Positions 30,429 through 41,563 of a stretch of DNA of 64,000 bases are shown in pieces (the first letter of the stretch is position 1; each line of letters starts with the position of its first letter). Location of the stretch: positions 82,529 through 146,528 of the forward strand of contig JACPAF010000002.1 in NCBI GenBank assembly GCA_016180965.1, given 5' to 3'. The position numbers were made by a program, and so were the translations under genes. The notes below the pieces were generated by a model. It saw only the letters and a program-made list of their open reading frames with translations. It was not told the DNA's origin and did not search any database. This DNA comes from Candidatus Aenigmatarchaeota archaeon. GTDB lineage: Archaea > Aenigmatarchaeota > Aenigmatarchaeia > JACPZZ01.

Positions 30429-31541
30429 TTATTTTGGAAATCTATTTTGGAAATCGTAAAGATGGGCGTTTGTCTGCCATGAAAACCTGCCCATGTAATT
30501 TTCGTCGAAGCTGAACCATTCCATGTCTGCAGATTCAACATTTCTTGTTATTTGGCCCGAAGCCCATGCGACCTGCCTTCCGGTATTGAACATGTTTAGC
30601 CACCCATCTTTCCTTGATCTCACAGCTGTAACCACTTGAAAAGATGACATGGGGTATCTGGACATCAGGCCGTTTAACATATGGGCTCCTTCTTTGTCCT
30701 GCCTATTTTCTATCATAGAGGTTTTATAACCTTTGGACTCAAGATACTCTTCCGTGTCATATATCCATAAAAATTGCCTGGAGGCATCGCCTTCTTCAAG
30801 CCTTATTTCACCCTTAACAGGATGGATTGAAACCGCAACCCTTGCCTTCACATTTTCGAACGGAGCTCTTGTGGACAACAAATAATGATCGGGTTTTGCG
30901 GAACCCGCAAAACCATATAAGGTGCCAAGCAGTTTTCTTGGTATCAAAATATGCTCTTTGCCTGCGTCTGCCAGAATTGCCGGATCTTCAACTGCATCAT
31001 CGACAATGTGGATGTAAGGATTTTTAAGACTCATTTGATGCACGGGTCCTCTTATGTCCTCGTCATAACTGAAAACAAAGCACGTTCTATTATTAGCAGT
31101 TTGCTCCATTGCGTAGGCTAATAACTCCCTGTCTGCCATCTCGATAAAATGGGGCATGCCCTTTCTATCAGTTGTGTGGGCCCTCCTGGAATATGCCAGC
31201 CAAAGTTTTTTAGCGTCGGCTATTCTTTCCTCCAATTGCTCGGGGAACTCGATTTCTTGAAATTGATGCACCATTTCCACAGATGCCTTTGGGATGCCTT
31301 CACTGTCCAAAATGCAGCTGTCATACATATGCGAATATTCATCGGCAGCACCTTTCAGTACAACAAATTCGTATTTCGGGTCTGTATCAGATTCAGCTTC
31401 CAGCCTGTTAATCAATTTTGAAACAGCAGAAAGCGCGCCTATGTCATGCTGGCCGAATTTTACCAATGCGTTTGTATCCACCAGTATCATCGGCGGTTGA
31501 TATTTTCCCAATAAATGCCCAATTCTTACCATACCAATCAC
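30429..31541 (-). CDS. PIN-domain protein fused to a roughly 200-aa C-terminal region of unknown function
   Basis: PIN acidic positions are 'ILVDTNAL', 'ADRELLAYA' and 'SYDEDI'. The C-terminal half has no recognised motif. Start is GTG 31541 or ATG 31532. Confidence 0.6.
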   Translation of the reverse strand: MIGMVRIGHLLGKYQPPMILVDTNALVKFGQHDIGALSAVSKLINRLEAESDTDPKYEFVVLKGAADEYSHMYDSCILDSEGIPKASVEMVHQFQEIEFPEQLEERIADAKKLWLAYSRRAHTTDRKGMPHFIEMADRELLAYAMEQTANNRTCFVFSYDEDIRGPVHQMSLKNPYIHIVDDAVEDPAILADAGKEHILIPRKLLGTLYGFAGSAKPDHYLLSTRAPFENVKARVAVSIHPVKGEIRLEEGDASRQFLWIYDTEEYLESKGYKTSMIENRQDKEGAHMLNGLMSRYPMSSFQVVTAVRSRKDGWLNMFNTGRQVAWASGQITRNVESADMEWFSFDENYMGRFSWQTNAHLYDFQNRFPK

Positions 31542-31562: not shown

Positions 31563-31660
31563 ATCCTAATTTATTCCATTAGGATTAATTGAACCCTTTA
31601 CCCTTCTGAAATAGCTAGTTTATAAATATGTCACTACTATATGATAGAAATCCTTATATA
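31563..31660. promoter_or_regulatory. Divergent promoter region: inverted repeat ATCCTAAT-N7-ATTAGGAT plus two TATA-like boxes
   Basis: Inverted repeat at 31563-31585. 'TTTATAAATA' at 31619-31628 and 'TTATATA' at 31654-31660. It lies between the minus-strand PIN gene and the plus-strand cassette. Confidence 0.3.
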
Positions 31661-31776
31661 CCACTTCATCATAATATCACTAACTCGTAGTAAACGTGAA
31701 CTGAAGCATACTGGAAACTGACACACACCAAGTGTGCGTCCAGTCGTCCATGCTTCTAGTTTCGGAGGTTGATAAC

Positions 31777-31971
31777 ATGGTTGTAATTAACAAGGAAGAT
31801 GCGGAAGATTTGATCAAAGTGTACAGGGAACAGCTTGTAGATGCCAAAATAAGGCTTAACGCTGCGCGTACGCTCAAGGAAATCAAATTCCTGCAAAGCA
31901 AGATCAATTTCCTGACTTCTCAAATAAGCGAGGTCAAGGATAGTAAAATCACCCGCAAAGGGAAGAGATGA
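31777..31971 (+). CDS. Small coiled-coil protein (64 aa), first gene of the orphan cassette
   Basis: 'GGAGGT' lies 8 nt upstream of the ATG. Heptad-like, Lys/Glu/Leu-rich sequence with a basic tail 'ITRKGKR'. Confidence 0.5.
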   Translation: MVVINKEDAEDLIKVYREQLVDAKIRLNAARTLKEIKFLQSKINFLTSQISEVKDSKITRKGKR

Positions 31972-31981
31972 GGTCATTTTT

Positions 31982-32302
31982 ATGAGGCAAAATTTAGCAG
32001 ACTTGGGACTACCAAACGTTTGGGGCGTGCTGTTCACGCCGGAACTGGATGTGATAGAAGTCTTTCCGAAAAATTTCGATTCCATAGACATCCGCGCACT
32101 CGCGGAGATAAACCAGGTTTTGAAGGAATGGATAACCACGCGCGGTATAAGCGAAATAGTTGATGCCGAAATCAATCTTTACGCGGGTAAAATAGGCGAA
32201 AAAATACTTTACGTTTCCGGCGACCCAAACACAGATTTCACCCATCTTTGGGAAGTTGTTTTAGACGTGAAAAACAGGTACGCCAGCAATACGAAGATTT
32301 AG
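31982..32302 (+). CDS. Hypothetical protein (106 aa), possible Roadblock/LC7-like alpha-beta fold
   Basis: Starts 10 nt after the previous gene. The predicted pattern is beta 'VWGVLF', beta 'VIEVF', a helix, beta 'EINLYAG', beta 'ILYVSGD', then a helix. This is inference only. Confidence 0.45.
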   Translation: MRQNLADLGLPNVWGVLFTPELDVIEVFPKNFDSIDIRALAEINQVLKEWITTRGISEIVDAEINLYAGKIGEKILYVSGDPNTDFTHLWEVVLDVKNRYASNTKI

Positions 32303-32334
32303 GTTGGCGCGCACAAGAATTGAGGGGAATAATT

Positions 32335-33120
32335 ATGGAAACTAAATTAACGGACGAGTACCTTCTCAAATCTTTATTTTACAATGTTTATGACATTGAC
32401 AGCGGAGGCGTTATGGCGCAGACACTGCTTGTGGACACACTTGTTTCGGGCGTTCAGATACCATATGAAACAGGAGAAAACACACTTTCCATAAGATTGT
32501 GCGCAAATAAGGCAAACTTGTACGCCAATCCCATTGTTGCCGGGGCGCTTGATCCAAAATATGCGGAATCCATGTCGTTCATATTCCCTGTCCATTATTT
32601 CGGGGAAGACGAAGAAAGACTGCGACAAATGAAGTCCGATTTGGACAGATTAGCTGTAATGGGCCGGTACGAGGCTTTGCAGGCGATTGTGCATCATAAC
32701 TTTGGATCAGGACCGCTTGACGAATGTGAGATTGAAGAAGTTACAAACGCGCTTAACGCGCTTGGAAGCGCAAGAGGGTTGGAGCCGCTTAAAAAAGATA
32801 ACGTTGAAAGGTTTCTTGGAGATGAATACTTAAAGGAATTCCAGCCAGACGTGCATCAATACTGGAATGGCGGCGGCAGAAAAGAGCGTGTCCAATATCA
32901 TACGTCTAAACTTGAATTAATGAACGCAATAACCGGGGCTGCAATAAAAAAAGCCAAACTTGTTGGAATAGATCCGGACACGTTAGCCAGAAATGACGCG
33001 GAGCACGCATTATATTGGAAACAGGTCTACGATGAAGATGTGCCGTTGCCGGGTGTTCTTTTAGCACGCGCACAGAACGCAGTCGCAGATGCATTTGAAA
33101 AATATCCGAGAGGACGATAA
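32335..33120 (+). CDS. Hypothetical protein (261 aa), paralogue of 33126..34001
   Basis: 'GAGGGG' Shine-Dalgarno upstream. It shares 'ANLYANPIVAGALDP' and 'WNGGGRKERVQYHTSKLELMNAI' with the next gene. Confidence 0.6.
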   Translation: METKLTDEYLLKSLFYNVYDIDSGGVMAQTLLVDTLVSGVQIPYETGENTLSIRLCANKANLYANPIVAGALDPKYAESMSFIFPVHYFGEDEERLRQMKSDLDRLAVMGRYEALQAIVHHNFGSGPLDECEIEEVTNALNALGSARGLEPLKKDNVERFLGDEYLKEFQPDVHQYWNGGGRKERVQYHTSKLELMNAITGAAIKKAKLVGIDPDTLARNDAEHALYWKQVYDEDVPLPGVLLARAQNAVADAFEKYPRGR

Positions 33121-33125
33121 TCTGT

Positions 33126-34001
33126 ATGGTTAATTATAAACCGCTGTTGAGTATCGCAAGAAATTATTTGGACGCGGAAAGTGCCGGTGCACGGCCGCAA
33201 ATAAAACTTTTAGAACATCTGATGGGCGAGGATCCAATTGTATTGGATCCAAAAGCCCCGAATTTTTCGACATCAAGAACCATCGCAGGAGAATCCAGTG
33301 CTAATATCTTAGCTACACCGATAGTTGCAAGAACTTTAGATCCATCTTTGTTTGAAGGTGCAAATGAAAGGTTCAATGCTTCAACACCTCCGGAATTTTT
33401 CGGAAAGTATTGCGACGGATTGAGAAGGCTTAACGATCAACATCAAGATAATATCCGGAGAGGAAGAAGTTACGCTTTACGCAACATAGCCGGAATGCCG
33501 TCGTACTTCGGACAGGATCCAATAAACGATGAAGATGCGGCTAAAATATCCGATGCATTAAATTCCAAAGGTTACAAAGCTGGCGATATGGAATTTACGC
33601 CAAAAATTTTAACTGATTTTGTTAAAGGCTATAATGGTATTATTCCTGGTCTTGAAAATCCCATCTTAGATCATTGGACTGGGAAAGGCAGAAGAGAACG
33701 TGTGAAAACACATGCCGGCAAATTAATATTGATGAACTGCATAATGGCTGCCACTTTGGAAATGGCCAGAGAAGCGGGCGTAGATTTATTCGAAACCCCA
33801 AATGGAAACGGCACACCTTTGTACCAAGACGAATATATTTCAGATTCTTGGAAAAAGGCGGGTGAATACCCGCAATCACCCTCGGCTTTGTTGGAAGAAT
33901 CCAGAAGAACAATTGCAAGAGCTAAAAATTATTTGATGTTCTCCGGTATTGCCACTGCGGCGGAACGAGCAGTTTACAATTTACGAAGGAATGGGAAATA
34001 A
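33126..34001 (+). CDS. Hypothetical protein (291 aa), paralogue of 32335..33120
   Basis: 'ANILATPIVARTLDP' and 'WTGKGRRERVKTHAGKLILMNCI'. Starts 5 nt after the previous gene. Confidence 0.6.
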   Translation: MVNYKPLLSIARNYLDAESAGARPQIKLLEHLMGEDPIVLDPKAPNFSTSRTIAGESSANILATPIVARTLDPSLFEGANERFNASTPPEFFGKYCDGLRRLNDQHQDNIRRGRSYALRNIAGMPSYFGQDPINDEDAAKISDALNSKGYKAGDMEFTPKILTDFVKGYNGIIPGLENPILDHWTGKGRRERVKTHAGKLILMNCIMAATLEMAREAGVDLFETPNGNGTPLYQDEYISDSWKKAGEYPQSPSALLEESRRTIARAKNYLMFSGIATAAERAVYNLRRNGK

Positions 34002-37762: not shown

Positions 37763-40700
37763 ATGAAAGACGAGAAGGTTGAAATCAAGCTCAAGATTGG
37801 CGAATTAACCAACCGCTCGGAAGTGGGACGCGGAATAGTAAGAATGGACATGACCGCGATGAAATCGCTGAACATACGCGAAGGCGACATTGTTGAACTG
37901 GAAGGGCAGAAAAAAACGGCCGCAATCGCTGTACGCGCATACCCGGCCGATGTCGGATTAAATATCATAAGAATGGACGGGCTGCTGCGAATGAATGCGT
38001 CCGTCGGACTCGGTGAAATGGTAAAAATAAGGAAAGCCGAGGCCAAAGAAGCAAAAAAAGTTGTTTTAGCCCCGGCACAGAAAGGTATTTTGCTAACCGT
38101 AAGCCCAAATTTATTGAGGCAAAATTTGATAATGCGCCCGCTTGTAAAAGGCGACATTATATCACCTTCACCGGTTTATAGAAAACGCACGAATACCATG
38201 TTCGATGAGTTTTTCGGCGTCGACGTTGAGAATTTCTTTTTTGGCCTGCCGATAGGGTTTCCGGGAGACATAAAATTAATGGTTGTTAAAACCCAGCCGG
38301 AAGGCATTGTAAAAGTTACAGATATCACGGAAATGGAATTGCTGACCGAAGCTGTTGAGGCTGACGAGAAAAAGATACCTGCTGTAACTTACGAAGATAT
38401 AGGCGGTTTAGGCGATGCTATTCAAAAAATTCGGGAGATGGTAGAACTTCCGCTAAGGCATCCGGAATTGTTCGAGAGATTAGGAATTGAACCGCCGAAA
38501 GGAATTTTATTGTACGGGCCACCCGGGACTGGAAAAACATTATTAGCCCGGGCTGTGGCCAATGAATCCGGCGCAAACTTTTTGACGATAAGCGGTCCTG
38601 AGATAATGAGTAAATGGTACGGCCAGAGTTTGCCATACAATCAGGAAATTGTTATTTTAGAGGATGGTTTAATAAAGAAAAAACCAATAGGCGAAGTGGT
38701 TCAAAGCGGAAATAAAAATATAAAAGTTCTAGCTTTCGATGAAAACGGAAAAACCACATTCTCACAAGTCACTGATCTGATAAAGCATAAAAACAGATCA
38801 AAGATTTTAGAAGTGAAAACACAAAGCGGCAGGAAAATTAAAGTCACGGATTACCATTCGCTTTTCACATTAAAGGGCAATAAGATTGAATCGGTAAAAA
38901 CTTCTGAACTCATACCTGGACAATCTTATGTTGCCGTACCTAAGATGATTCCCGTAGCAGAAAACATTGTAAAAGAAATAAATTTCTTGGAATACCTCAG
39001 AAAAAACGATTTAGGCCTTGTTATCAGAGATGTTAAAAACCAGCTAAGACTGGCGACCGAAAAACTTGGCCACAGGGAAACTGCTAAGATGCTTGGATTC
39101 AAAGAAAAATATCTATATGACGTAATTTCAAAAAATGTCGGAATAAAAGTTTCTAAATTTTTAGAATTGATGGAAAAAGCTGCGATTTCGATAGATCCTG
39201 AACAGATTAATATATCTTCCAAAGGAAAATCCCTGCCCGCTAAAATAAAAATTACGAAAGATTTCTGTGAATTTTTAGGCTTATGGATAGCTGAAGGATC
39301 TTTCAATGGGGACGAAGCTGTTAGGATAAGCATCCACCAAAACGAAGTCAAAAAAGTATTGCCATTGATTGAAAGCTTGTTTGGAAAGGCGACATTATAC
39401 CAAAAGAAAGACGGAAAGGGTGTGGACATATACATAACCCACAAGGTTCTGGTAACCTTCATGAAAAATCTTCTTGGAATGGCGGATGGAGCAAGAAGAA
39501 AGAAAGTGCCTGAAATTATATTTTCTACGGGCAGAGAAAATATAGCTGCATTTTTACGCGGCTACTTTTCTGGTGATGGATCGCTGGCCCAAAATCACCG
39601 CAATGTAATTACGATAGAAGGGTCTACGGAAAGTGAAAAACTGGCAAATGATTTGACATACCTTTTAACTTACTTCGGTATAGTTGCGAAAATCTATCCC
39701 AGAGCAAGAGACGGCCACGAAGCTTATAGAGTTTGTTTTGCTGGCGCGCAGCCAATTGAAAAATTCAAGGAGATAGGATTTTTCGACCATGATAAAATGG
39801 AAAAAATAAACAACTATCTAAACGGTGTAAAATGGGACAGGGACGCCCAGATCCCAATAACATCCTCTATCAAATCTTATTTATCGAATGTCAACGATGC
39901 AAAGCCGTGGACGTCATCTTCAACAATAGGCATAGGCAAGCTTGAACAATTTGCATCGCAGACGGAAGGTTTAGGTCATGAGGATATTTTGAGAATCAAA
40001 AAACTGGTTAACATGGACATATACTGGGACAGGGTTGAAGAAATCAATGAAGTAGAAAATGAAGAATATGTTTATGATATTTCTGTAAACCCGGCACAAA
40101 ACTTTGTCGGTGGATTTGGTGGTATATTTGCACACAACTCCGAAGAAAACTTAAGGAAAATTTTCGAGGATGCTGAAAAGAATGCGCCCAGTATAATTTT
40201 CATAGACGAGGTTGATGCCATTGCTCCGAAGAGGGAAGAAGTCACGGGAGAGGTTGAACGAAGAGTCGTTGCGCAATTGTTATCATTGATGGATGGAATG
40301 AGAAAACGCGGGCGTGTTGTTGTTATCGCTGCGACTAACCGCGAAAATGCAATAGACCCTGCGTTGCGAAGGCCTGGCAGGTTTGACCGCGAAGTCGAAA
40401 TAGGCGTGCCGGACCGCAAAGGGCGCCGTGAGGTTTTGCAAATTCATACGAGGAACATGCCTCTTGATAAAACAGTTAGTATTGACGAGTTGGCCGCGAA
40501 AACGCACGGGTTTGTAGGCGCGGATGTTGAGGCGCTGGCCAAAGAAGCTGCGATTTCCGTTTTGCGGCGCGTGTTACCGGAAATACGATGGAGGGAAGAA
40601 GGCGAAATTCCGAGTGAGATAATGGAAAAATTAATTGTTACTTCGGTCGATTTCGACAATGCTTTAAAAATTGTTGAACCGTCGGCTATGCGCGAGGTTT

Positions 40701-41563
40701 TAGTTGAGATCCCAAATGTAAAGTGGTCGGACATCGGCGGGATGGAAGAATTGAAAGAGCGATTACAAGAAGTTATTGAATGGCCTTTGCAGAATCCGGA
40801 CGCTTTCAAGAAAATGGGAATAAAACCGCCCCGCGGCATACTTTTATACGGGCCTCCGGGCTGCGGAAAGACTATGATCGTGAAGGCTGTGGCGAATGAA
40901 GCGGGATTGAATTTCATATCTATCAAAGGGCCGGAACTGCTTTCAAAATGGGTGGGCGAAAGCGAAAAGGCGGTGCGCGAAATATTTCGCAGGGCAAGGC
41001 AGGTATCGCCGGCTATTGTGTTTTTTGATGAAATAGACGCGCTAGCTCCGAGAAGGGGTTTGGAAATGGGATCGCGCGTTACGGAACAGGTTGTTTCTCA
41101 ATTGTTAACTGAAATGTCAGGTTTAGAAGATTTGCATGATGTAATTGTTATCGCAGCGACGAACAGGCCTGACATTTTGGATCCAGCTTTGTTGAGACCG
41201 GGACGCTTTGACCGTCACATACTCGTGACCGCTCCGGACGCGGACGCAAGGGAAAAGATTTTCAAGGTGCACACCAGCGGGATGCCGTTAAACAAAGACG
41301 TTTCGATAGAAAAAATTGCAAAAGAAACTGAAGGTTATTCCGGTGCGGACATCGAGGCGTTGTGCCGCGAAGCTGCAATCTCGGCTTTGAGGGAAGACAT
41401 TAAGGCCAAAGAGGTTAGATGGAGGCATTTCGAGGCAATGTTGAAAGTTATAAAACCATCGCTGTCGCCGGAATTAATGCGCGCATACCAGGCCGTATTC
41501 GAAATGATGAAAAAGCCCGACAAAAAAGATGAGCTGCAGGAACAACTGAGTTACGTGGGATGA
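37763..41563 (+). CDS. cdc48: CDC48/VCP-type AAA+ ATPase (two AAA domains) interrupted by an intein in D1
   Basis: N-domain, then D1 Walker A 'GPPGTGKT', then the intein, then 'IIFIDEVD', then D2 'GPPGCGKT' and 'IVFFDEID'. The protein is 762 aa without the intein. Confidence 0.95.
38627..40138 (+). mobile_element. Intein (504 aa) with a LAGLIDADG homing-endonuclease domain, inserted in Cdc48 D1
   Basis: The host sequence 'SKWYGQ|SEENLRK' is restored on excision. The intein starts '[14 protein letters not shown]'. Block B is 'VTDYHSLF'. LAGLIDADG motifs are '[11 protein letters not shown]' and '[11 protein letters not shown]'. It ends 'GIFAHN' followed by Ser. Confidence 0.9.

Follow-up and report, generated by a model that had tools for sequence, protein, structure and literature searches.

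A lineage-restricted gene cassette of Aenigmarchaeota combining two small proteins with an unclassified all-helical protein family

The window analyzed here is a stretch of 64,000 nucleotides from a Candidatus Aenigmatarchaeota archaeon (contig JACPAF010000002.1). Four genes on the same strand span positions 31777-34001 of the window, with gaps of 10, 32, and 5 nt between them according to ORF analysis. They encode two small proteins, cc64 and p106, and two larger proteins, referred to as paralogues A and B. A non-coding block and a divergently oriented gene, p370, are located upstream. The features of the locus are as follows:

30429-31541, minus strand: p370, divergent, 370 aa, with a tentatively PIN/NYN-like N-terminal domain and a C-terminal domain lacking an assignment
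31629-31693, plus strand: putative promoter/operator block, about 65 nt, non-coding, nearly invariant, upstream of cc64
31764-31769: Shine-Dalgarno-like site GGAGGT before cc64
31777-31971, plus strand: cc64, 64 aa
31970-31974: Shine-Dalgarno-like site GAGGT before p106, overlapping the cc64 stop codon
31982-32302, plus strand: p106, 106 aa
32322-32327: Shine-Dalgarno-like site GAGGGG before paralogue A
32335-33120, plus strand: paralogue A, 261 aa
33108-33114: Shine-Dalgarno-like site GAGAGGA before paralogue B
33126-34001, plus strand: paralogue B, 291 aa

The frame of cc64 is open from a GTG at 31732 and that of paralogue A from a TTG at 32248; both starts were placed at ATG, since most cc64 orthologues begin with MVVINK and the closest orthologue of A (in L001) begins with METKLTDE. 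The gene order, the spacers, and the GGAGGT and GAGGGG sites agree with the first-pass annotation of this DNA. Translational coupling is suggested by the Shine-Dalgarno-like sites that overlap or closely trail the preceding stop codon, and the four genes are predicted to be co-transcribed, given their spacing and the single conserved promoter. All four are real genes under purifying selection. In the comparison of the window with L001, the dN/dS values are 0.05 for p106, 0.17 for A, 0.16 for B, and 0.06 for the nearby Hel308 gene, while cc64 has accumulated zero non-synonymous changes (dN = 0) vs. a pS of 0.31. The small proteins cc64 and p106 evolve at or below the rate of the housekeeping gene Hel308, whereas the paralogues (dN/dS ~0.17) evolve 3-10 times faster. 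The proposed check for GC deviation gave 0.41-0.45 for the cassette, the same as for the rest of the window. Consistent with the earlier description, the cassette proteins contain no Walker A motif (P-loop), no TM segment (the highest 19-residue Kyte-Doolittle mean is ≤1.2), and no signal peptide or membrane anchor.

The block upstream of cc64 contains a BRE/TATA-like sequence, AGAAATCC-TTATATAC, with the TATA element at 31654-31661. An imperfect direct repeat flanks the TATA element, with one copy at 31629-31638 (TGTCACTACT) and the other at 31675-31684 (TATCACTAAC). The repeat motif occurs twice in the window vs. 0.5 expected, a count that alone is not significant. Among seven genomes saturated at synonymous sites, the block retains approximately 90% identity, and its core pattern is found exactly once per cassette-bearing locus and never in viral contigs or in the loci of the solo relatives of the paralogues described below. 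Near-invariance of this kind implies control by a sequence-specific factor. No other element of the locus is as conserved as cc64 and the block, and the variation of both tracks species distance, not paralogue type. Two other identities of the block were considered and rejected: a structured RNA or C/D-box sRNA (best Rfam E = 2.7, no significant match; folding z about 0 on both strands; no covariation) and a 20-codon micro-ORF (a stop at codon 2 in L014; third-codon positions mostly invariant). The block, which is the most conserved element of the locus, had been missed in the earlier sequence-only reading.

Cassettes are found at one locus, after Hel308, in eight Aenigmarchaeota assemblies (the window, L001, L002, L004, L012, L014, L020, and L022), with spacers of 0-32 nt. 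The conserved core consists of three genes, namely cc64, p106, and at least one paralogue, with the number of paralogue copies varying between 1 and 3. Thus, the four-gene unit proposed in the first-pass annotation is reduced to a core of three. Only a B-type copy is present in L004, only an A-type copy in each of L012 and L020, and one A-type copy followed by the contig end in L014. Further downstream genes of similar length, encoding 306/307 aa in L001 and L002, 267 aa in L012, and 289 aa in L020, are unrelated to the paralogues; those of L001 and L002 encode metallophosphoesterases. The cassette is located in a variable island between conserved genes, and in L004 this island contains an IS transposase; the chromosomal position of the cassette is fixed, being the same in the eight genomes. 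The cassette is therefore a real gene module restricted to a small DPANN clade. Since sensitive searches place the paralogues in no characterized family and the gene neighborhood is syntenic in other genomes, the earlier proposal of an orphan cassette stands on both points on which it was open to refutation.

The cassette had also been described as bracketed by a PIN-fusion gene and radB. The latter assignment is firm (TIGR02237 equivalog, E = 7e-66), whereas the PIN-like call is weak: an NYN match was obtained for only one of five p370 orthologues (E = 0.0064), and the window p370 itself has none. Residues D22, D137, D160, and D162 of p370 are invariant, its identity to the orthologues is 34-39%, and it has no PADLOC or PHROGs match. 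The gene is present in the window, L001, L002, L004, L020, and L022 and is missing from L012 and L014; p370 is thus an accessory neighbor outside the conserved core.

The most conserved protein of the cassette, cc64, is 76-100% identical between genomes, with residues 16-50 being nearly invariant. It is basic (pI 9.9, net charge +5.5) and helical, and probably folds as an antiparallel hairpin of helices that ends in a basic C-terminal tail. Its family matches are weak (HR1 and DksA coiled coils, as well as a borderline match to phrog_17983, E = 6e-4), and a profile search of PDB returned no match.

The second small protein, p106, is an acidic alpha/beta protein (pI 4.6, charge -6.4), and its fold is tentatively Roadblock/LC7/longin-like, as judged from a low-confidence AlphaFold2 model (pLDDT 51, pTM 0.36) with a b-b-a-b-b-b-a order of elements, to be compared with the (a)-b-b-a-b-b-b order of Roadblock/LC7. 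Among the best 50 Foldseek matches of this model, almost all are Roadblock, LAMTOR, MglB, or longin proteins, although none is individually significant (best E = 0.016, TM ~0.3). The Pfam family Robl_LC7 (PF03259) is matched neither by p106 at E ≤ 1 nor by eight orthologues at E ≤ 5, and a p106 profile search against PDB sequences gave 0 matches. Within four genes of p106 there is no MglA-type small GTPase or histidine kinase; the neighborhood comprises Hel308, p370, cc64, A, B, radB, a zinc-ribbon membrane protein, and a permease. The earlier label of a Roadblock-like protein is thus retained tentatively at the level of the fold, but p106 is not assignable to the Roadblock/MglB family, given the lack of both a Robl_LC7 match and an adjacent GTPase. 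The divergence of p106 tracks species distance poorly (r = 0.25 vs. Hel308 in seven genomes): p106 proteins are 80-95% identical among B-carrying genomes and 55-70% identical to those of A-only genomes at a similar Hel308 distance. This split by paralogue repertoire suggests co-evolution, although the co-variation in these seven genomes could have arisen by exchange of whole cassettes between lineages.

The relationship of A and B claimed in the first-pass annotation is confirmed by BLASTP (29% identity over 216 aa, E = 2e-20) and by a profile-profile comparison of A-type and B-type copies (E = 2e-43), and the shared motifs quoted there fall in invariant alignment columns. Orthologues of A, an acidic all-alpha protein, are 35-72% identical; B-type copies form a tight clade (66-72% identity) and carry a conserved C-terminal extension of approximately 25 aa, YLMFSGIATAAERAVYNLRRNGK. 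The family is extremely rare: a search of 5.8 billion sequences with B yielded only 4 relatives, and 1.84 billion cluster representatives contained 14 true ones. Searches of Pfam, NCBIfam, PHROGs, PADLOC, and PDB sequences gave no match for the family. The AlphaFold2 model of B, of moderate confidence (pLDDT 70, pTM 0.73) and with residues 36-86 unmodeled, is all helical, and the suggested Foldseek search with this model found no structural neighbor, i.e., nothing with E below 0.4 in PDB and BFVD.

A set of polar residues (S19, G21, Q25, N60, R100, R189-x6-H196, and K199) is kept in every cassette copy, so that none of the copies is a degenerate subunit. The same positions are kept in distant solo members of the family, with R189-x6-H196 found in six of the seven scorable aligned distant members and H196 being invariant. 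Arg, Lys, His, Asn, and Gln make up much of the set, which lacks any invariant acidic residue; N60 falls in the unmodeled segment. The solo relatives are full-length homologues (hhalign E = 4e-29) encoded in other archaea in unrelated housekeeping contexts, without cc64 or p106. Given the loci with A only or B only, the copy number of 1-3, and these solo relatives, the hetero-oligomeric complex of duplicated subunits that had been proposed is not required as an obligatory A + B assembly. One bacterial member of the family is encoded two genes downstream of an RHS toxin.

Several candidate relationships of the paralogues were rejected. The match of A to MCR_beta (the C-terminal domain of methyl-coenzyme M reductase beta; E = 0.042) fails the curated cut-off and is noise, since just one of the 16 family members gives it and no Pfam family recurs among them. 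No internal duplication was detected in the fold (hhalign E = 0.11), and hhalign showed no kinship of the paralogues with the ~198-aa helical island proteins, p370, p106, or cc64. P0016 (1751 aa), obtained in an exhaustive search, is a false positive due to an Ig-like repeat with WNGGGRK. An analogy with gas-vesicle GvpF/L and GvpG/K, likewise a pair of paralogues accompanied by small proteins, was dropped (no Pfam match; the paralogues are all-alpha).

The cassette carries no viral, plasmid, or defense signature, and mobile-element and secretion signatures were likewise not found. PADLOC-DB 2.0 gave 0 matches for the four cassette proteins and p370 and 0 for ten variable island genes. Confirmed relatives of the paralogues, p106, or cc64 were not found in IMG/VR, and tblastn with B found no match in GenBank phage/virus records (INPHARED) or PLSDB plasmids; the only PHROGs match is the borderline one of cc64 to a family with no assigned function. 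No integrase, flanking tRNA, or other RNA gene accompanies the cassette. A HEPN domain was found neither among the Pfam matches of the 16 paralogue family members at E ≤ 1 nor among the Foldseek PDB matches of the B model.

Our preferred reading, which we hold tentatively and at somewhat below even probability, is a lineage-restricted, tightly regulated operon combining a constant small-protein adaptor with a variable helical payload for an anionic ligand. Its product would be a cytoplasmic protein module with a constant and a variable part. In the constant part, the basic helical hairpin cc64 would pair with the acidic Roadblock/longin-like p106, whose dimer would bind helices, as is usual for Roadblock/longin domains, and the pair would serve as an adaptor or regulatory platform. 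The two proteins are oppositely charged (+5.5 and -6.4), which was counted in favor of this pairing; by analogy with Roadblock/longin platform complexes, both the cc64-p106 pairing and a contact between p106 and the paralogues are proposed. The variable part would comprise 1-3 copies of the fast-evolving all-alpha protein. We take this protein to be the functional payload, given that members of its family work on their own, as single genes, in other archaea. The polar residues of the protein would bind, or process in a metal-independent manner, a phosphate-bearing anionic ligand such as a nucleotide or RNA; the residue types fit such a ligand. The operon would be driven from the promoter/operator block by a sequence-specific factor. 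A bolder version, which we regard as improbable, is a GTPase-independent Roadblock-based module, in which the cc64-p106 platform controls a metal-independent enzyme of new fold (e.g., an RNase or nucleotide-processing enzyme with an R-x6-H/K site) that diversifies in copy number and sequence between close relatives, the whole being a DPANN-specific stress-response or conflict system switched at the operator.

Roadblock dimers act as regulatory platforms, and coupling of MglB-type Roadblock proteins to an MglA-type GTPase within four genes, observed in 421 of 749 cases, is typical but not universal (PMC4316618). Like the cassette with its tentatively Roadblock-like p106, the MglA/MglB system and the Streptomyces conservon (CvnA-D) combine a small Roadblock/LC7-type protein with partners, some of them uncharacterized, in a compact operon, and the p106 fold matches include MglB and a Streptomyces Roadblock/LC7 domain. 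Unlike these systems, the cassette has no small GTPase or histidine kinase within four genes, and p106 is accompanied by a helical protein of 64 aa and by members of an unclassified all-alpha family; p106 itself differs from their Roadblock/LC7 proteins in lacking both a Robl_LC7 match and the N-terminal helix. In eukaryotes, a small alpha/beta platform binds helical partners in Ragulator (LAMTOR2/3 with helical p18), dynein (LC7 with the intermediate chain), and AP complexes (sigma in alpha-solenoid adaptins). Such eukaryotic and Asgard platform complexes provide the best fold matches of p106, which are non-significant, come from a low-confidence model, and show no sequence homology, and the paralogue family has no detectable counterpart in them.

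The conservation of the block also suits another, fairly unlikely explanation, namely an autoregulated operon without a stable four-part complex, in which cc64 would be a small DNA-binding repressor or activator acting at the T(G/A)TCACTA(C/A) repeats flanking the TATA box, and the paralogues would work on their own as enzymes or binding proteins. Sites upstream of the TATA box are the usual places for archaeal activators, and sites over the start for repressors; the repeats occupy both, one lying upstream of the TATA box and the other over the predicted start site. Furthermore, cc64 is basic and first in the operon, it shares with the DNA block both the highest conservation and the dependence on species distance, and the paralogue family works solo elsewhere. 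Nonetheless, cc64 matches no DNA-binding family (RHH, HTH, or other), the repeat count in the window is not significant alone, and no role is provided for p106, whose co-variation with the paralogue set is left unexplained. This explanation partly overlaps the adaptor-and-payload reading. The fast evolution of the paralogues and p370, the variable paralogue copy number, the setting in a variable island with an IS transposase in L004, and the bacterial relative near an RHS toxin would instead suit a conflict or defense module, which appears improbable to us. In such a module, the paralogues would be HEPN-like metal-independent RNases acting as homo- or heterodimers, the small proteins would restrain them, and p370 would be a second nuclease. 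Similar to HEPN RNases, which are often dimeric and often fast-evolving, the paralogues are all-alpha and have a long helix that opens with a near-invariant R-x6-H; R189-x6-H196, retained by nearly all members, fits the Rx4-6H pattern, a short motif of low specificity. However, the paralogues are much larger than the HEPN core, the residue after their Arg is not the usual conserved polar one, 0 of 16 members match Pfam HEPN even at E = 1, and no HEPN structure is among the Foldseek matches. PADLOC is empty for the cassette and island genes, dN/dS values of ~0.17 reveal no gene-wide positive selection, the locus has a fixed chromosomal position and normal GC, the solo relatives reside among housekeeping genes, and p370 is dispensable.

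DPANN archaea depend on host contact, and the paralogues could be building blocks of a structural, cytoskeletal, or host-contact assembly of an episymbiont, with the small proteins as assembly factors. In line with this explanation, the paralogues are all helical and contain long helices, their copy number varies, and they evolve fast; Roadblock/longin domains, moreover, are used in trafficking and motor complexes. We nevertheless consider it quite unlikely, given that a signal peptide, TM segment, membrane anchor, internal repeat, and likeness to known filament-forming folds are all absent and that the invariant residues are polar or charged, as in a functional site, rather than suited to repetitive packing. 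A remnant of an integrated virus or other mobile element would account for a variable region in which all genes are ORFans and for the borderline match of cc64 to phrog_17983. This origin has very little probability in view of the lack of relatives in IMG/VR, the lack of B relatives in phage/virus records or PLSDB, the absence of the promoter block from viral contigs and of an integrase, tRNA, or other RNA gene alongside, the normal GC content, the single chromosomal position in eight genomes, and strong purifying selection.

Narrowly distributed, poorly characterized, and partly fast-evolving gene clusters of archaea have been described as dark matter islands (Makarova et al., 2014, PMC4158269). 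The cassette resembles them in its location in a variable region between conserved genes and differs from them in a core that is stable in position and content, with two proteins and the promoter being among the most conserved sequences of the region. Its newness consists in the lack of a match to anything known and is not a demonstrated new mechanism. The impact is limited by the narrow distribution, i.e., one clade of uncultured groundwater Aenigmarchaeota and about a dozen solo relatives. A large share of DPANN genes is uncharacterized, and the preferred adaptor-and-payload reading, if true, would bring to light a protein family whose all-alpha fold is possibly new and a second prokaryotic use of Roadblock-like platforms, here without the usual small GTPase partner. 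It would also provide a compact target for DPANN biochemistry, comprising three or four small soluble proteins and a 65-bp operator.

The cassette consists of four co-oriented genes, located where the first-pass annotation had placed them:

31777-31971, + strand: cc64, a basic, helical protein of 64 aa, ATG start
31982-32302, + strand: p106, an acidic protein of 106 aa
32335-33120, + strand: paralogue A, 261 aa, ATG start
33126-34001, + strand: paralogue B, 291 aa

The intergenic gaps are 10, 32 and 5 nt long, and every start is preceded, 5-11 nt upstream, by a Shine-Dalgarno-like purine run; the gaps are as originally described. Mechanical ORF openings lie further upstream for cc64 (GTG, 31732) and A (TTG, 32248); the ATG starts were adopted because the N-termini of orthologues agree with them (MVVINK in most cases for cc64; METKLTDE for A, in its nearest orthologue). 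All four ORFs are real genes under purifying selection. Against the nearest genome, the cc64 protein is unchanged with 31% of its synonymous sites different, and dN/dS equals 0.05 (p106), 0.17 (A), and 0.16 (B), the comparison genes Hel308 and RadB having 0.06 and 0.02, respectively. The values for A and B give no sign of gene-wide positive selection. By their sequences, the two large proteins are true paralogues, as had been proposed (29% identity over 216 aa, BLASTP E = 2e-20; profile-profile comparison of all A-type with all B-type copies, E = 2e-43). The reported lack of a P-loop and a TM segment was borne out, as Walker A motifs are lacking from all four proteins, and so are hydrophobic stretches sufficient for a membrane helix. 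The GC content of the cassette matches that of the rest of the window, and thus no GC deviation, suggested as a mark of horizontal acquisition, was observed.

Searches of Pfam, NCBIfam, PHROGs, and PADLOC gave no significant match for any of the four proteins, and the PDB sequences yielded no match for the A and B sequences or for the cc64, p106, and paralogue-family profiles, so that the paralogues retain their claimed orphan status. In the Pfam check, 16 members of the paralogue family were scanned singly; the weak match of A to MCR_beta (E = 0.042) was rejected as noise, no Pfam family being matched by more than one member. The borderline match of cc64 to phrog_17983, a phage family of unknown function (E = 6e-4), and its weak matches to two antiparallel coiled-coil families (HR1 and the DksA coiled coil) are probably compositional. 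No description of the cassette or its main protein family was found in curated libraries, solved structures, or the searched literature. The cassette is unclassified by its distance from known systems. Its significance is tempered by its very narrow distribution in uncultured organisms and by how common conserved hypothetical operons are among DPANN archaea.

Only four relatives of B were found in a database of 5.8 billion sequences, all in Aenigmarchaeota MAGs. When 1.84 billion cluster representatives were searched exhaustively with an HMM, 15 proteins were returned, one of which (P0016) is a false positive matched through an Ig-like repeat, and a one-genome-per-species scan (185,579 species) recovered just two species. 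The cassette is present in the window and at loci L001, L002, L004, L012/L013, L014/L015, L020, and L022 of related Aenigmarchaeota assemblies (Hel308 72-88%, RadB 84-95% identity). It always follows Hel308 and precedes radB wherever the contig extends that far, so that the synteny check places it at one locus in eight assemblies. These flanks are ordinary; the downstream bracketing gene is indeed radB (TIGR02237, E = 7e-66). An extra p106 copy was found on the short metagenome contig L021.

The conserved unit comprises a cc protein of 62-68 aa, a p106 protein of 105-112 aa, and between one and three paralogues. Both A and B occur in the window and L001, three copies in L002, a single B-type copy in L004, and single A-type copies in L012 and L020; one A-type copy is visible in L014, where the contig ends just after it. 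The proposed four-gene unit is thus reduced to a core of three genes (cc64, p106, and at least one paralogue), and the suggested A+B hetero-oligomer is not required, given the loci with B-type or A-type alone. Further large genes downstream of the paralogues were rejected as extra copies, since they encode unrelated proteins. Those of L001 (8959-9882) and L002 (9815-10735) are calcineurin-like metallophosphoesterases (~306 aa) between the last paralogue and radB, missing from the window. One genome alone has an additional gene, for a predicted membrane protein of 91 aa, between p106 and its only paralogue (L012 7721-7996, L013 2993-3268).

Approximately ten more divergent members of the paralogue family are full-length homologues (hhalign E = 4e-29) encoded by single genes amid unrelated archaeal housekeeping genes. 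Such solo members adjoin SRP54 (L007), GrpE and DnaK (L008), ribosomal protein L44e and GINS (L016), or RNase P p30 and ribosomal protein S6e (L018). Neither the small proteins nor the promoter block described below was found near any of them; therefore the helical protein can work alone, and cc64 and p106 are a lineage-specific addition to it. One family member, P0022 (L011, 10001-10603, cut by the contig end), comes from a contig that bears the label "bacterium", and its gene is the second one downstream of a gene for an RHS-repeat toxin of 1390 aa. P0022 has exactly the same N-terminal motif, IRSAYDLSSCGIGVQ, as the solo member P0015 of L007, which could reflect inter-domain transfer or a binning error.

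The cassette proteins evolve at different rates. Among the proteins of the locus, conservation is highest in cc64 (76-100% identity), whose divergence tracks species distance (r = 0.78 with Hel308), whereas that of p106 does not (r = 0.25). The p106 proteins are 80-95% identical among the four genomes with a B-type paralogue and 55-70% identical to or among A-only genomes, even at Hel308 identities of 84-87%. In this small sample the pattern suggests that p106 may co-evolve with the paralogue set, although whole-cassette exchange between lineages would look alike. The paralogues change 3-10 times faster than the housekeeping neighbours.

Upstream of cc64, a non-coding block of ~65 nt (31629-31693) is near-invariant throughout the genomes that carry the cassette, even though saturation has been reached at synonymous sites between them. 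It contains a good archaeal BRE/TATA (AGAAATCC-TTATATAC, TATA at 31654-31661) flanked by an imperfect direct repeat (TGTCACTACT at 31629 and TATCACTAAC at 31675; consensus T(G/A)TCACTA(C/A)). The core pattern occurs exactly once per cassette-bearing locus and is absent from solo loci and viral contigs. An RNA element was rejected (no significant Rfam match, no covariation, folding energy not better than for shuffled sequences on both strands), as was a 20-codon reading frame, which is broken in L014. We infer a promoter with putative operator sites for a sequence-specific regulator, the basic cc64 being a candidate for that role. Between the block and the start of cc64 lies a leader of ~90 nt (31680-31780) that can fold into a long hairpin (-28 kcal/mol, z = -1.6); the hairpin is not conserved, as only L001 has this leader in common with the window and the other genomes have a much shorter one.

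The AlphaFold2 model of B, built from six sequences, is all helical (mean pLDDT 70, pTM 0.73; residues 36-86 unmodelled). A Foldseek search with this model gave no structural neighbour in the PDB or a viral structure set (no match with E < 0.4 or TM > 0.25). Polar residues S19, G21, Q25, N60, R189, H196, and K199 are retained across the family copies, solo ones included, H196 being invariant and R100 near-invariant; no degenerate copy is apparent, each keeping the polar set. For p106, the model from eight orthologues is poor (pLDDT 51, pTM 0.36; secondary structure b-b-a-b-b-b-a), and none of its Foldseek matches is significant (best E 0.016, TM ~0.3). Roadblock/LC7/longin-superfamily domains nonetheless make up almost the whole of the top 50, among them Asgard Roadblock, LAMTOR2/3, Rag/Gtr C-terminal domains, MglB, km23, AP sigma subunits, and the SRX domain. 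The Pfam Robl_LC7 model matched none of the eight orthologues, and the cassette lacks an MglA-type small GTPase, which Roadblock proteins usually have as a partner within a distance of four genes (PMC4316618). The fold matches are taken to lend tentative support to the Roadblock-like guess made earlier, but not to make p106 a member of the family.

We tentatively favour a module with a constant and a variable part. The constant part would be a platform of the basic cc64 and the acidic, Roadblock-like p106; the variable part would be a payload of one or more fast-evolving helical proteins, whose conserved site would suit an anionic ligand. An autoregulated operon, with cc64 simply a repressor and no stable complex, is a less probable account. 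Somewhat less probable again is a conflict module that would act through a HEPN-like RNase: H196 follows R189 after six residues in the paralogues, a spacing compatible with the HEPN RNase motif, but neither the Pfam scan of the 16 members nor the Foldseek matches add support. We regard a structural or host-contact assembly as improbable, and a mobile-element remnant as highly improbable, since the cassette keeps a fixed place in the chromosome, is normal in composition, and has no relatives in viral and plasmid collections.

The favoured platform-and-payload module does not include the gene on the Hel308 side, which the first-pass annotation had called a PIN fusion:

30429-31541, - strand: p370, a divergent 370-aa gene with an N-terminal PIN/NYN-like pattern and a C-terminal domain of unknown kind

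The gene is there, and invariant acidic residues in a PIN/NYN-like pattern, with a weak NYN match in one orthologue (E = 0.006), hint at a PIN-like nature. Found in six genomes, it is accessory rather than core, since it is absent from two cassette-bearing ones (L012 and L014), and it evolves very fast (34-39% identity where Hel308 has 82-88%). Closely related genomes differ in what lies between Hel308 and the cassette (L001 3798-5346, L002 2483-5329, L004 390-5717, L020 3583-5146). This stretch encodes a lipoprotein that has a TAT signal and an HExxH motif (~309 aa; divided between two ORFs in L004), along with one or two ~198-aa helical proteins, other ORFans, and, in L004, an IS-type transposase. 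These genes have no PADLOC or PHROGs match and no defence or viral signature. Inteins (Intein_splicing + LAGLIDADG) were observed in Hel308 of L004 and L014 and in Cdc48 of L004 (L004 1-367 and 13176-16879, L014 2994-6686). The 1266-aa ORF of the window (37763-41563, + strand) probably contains an intein too, as its length equals that of the intein-containing Cdc48 of L004.
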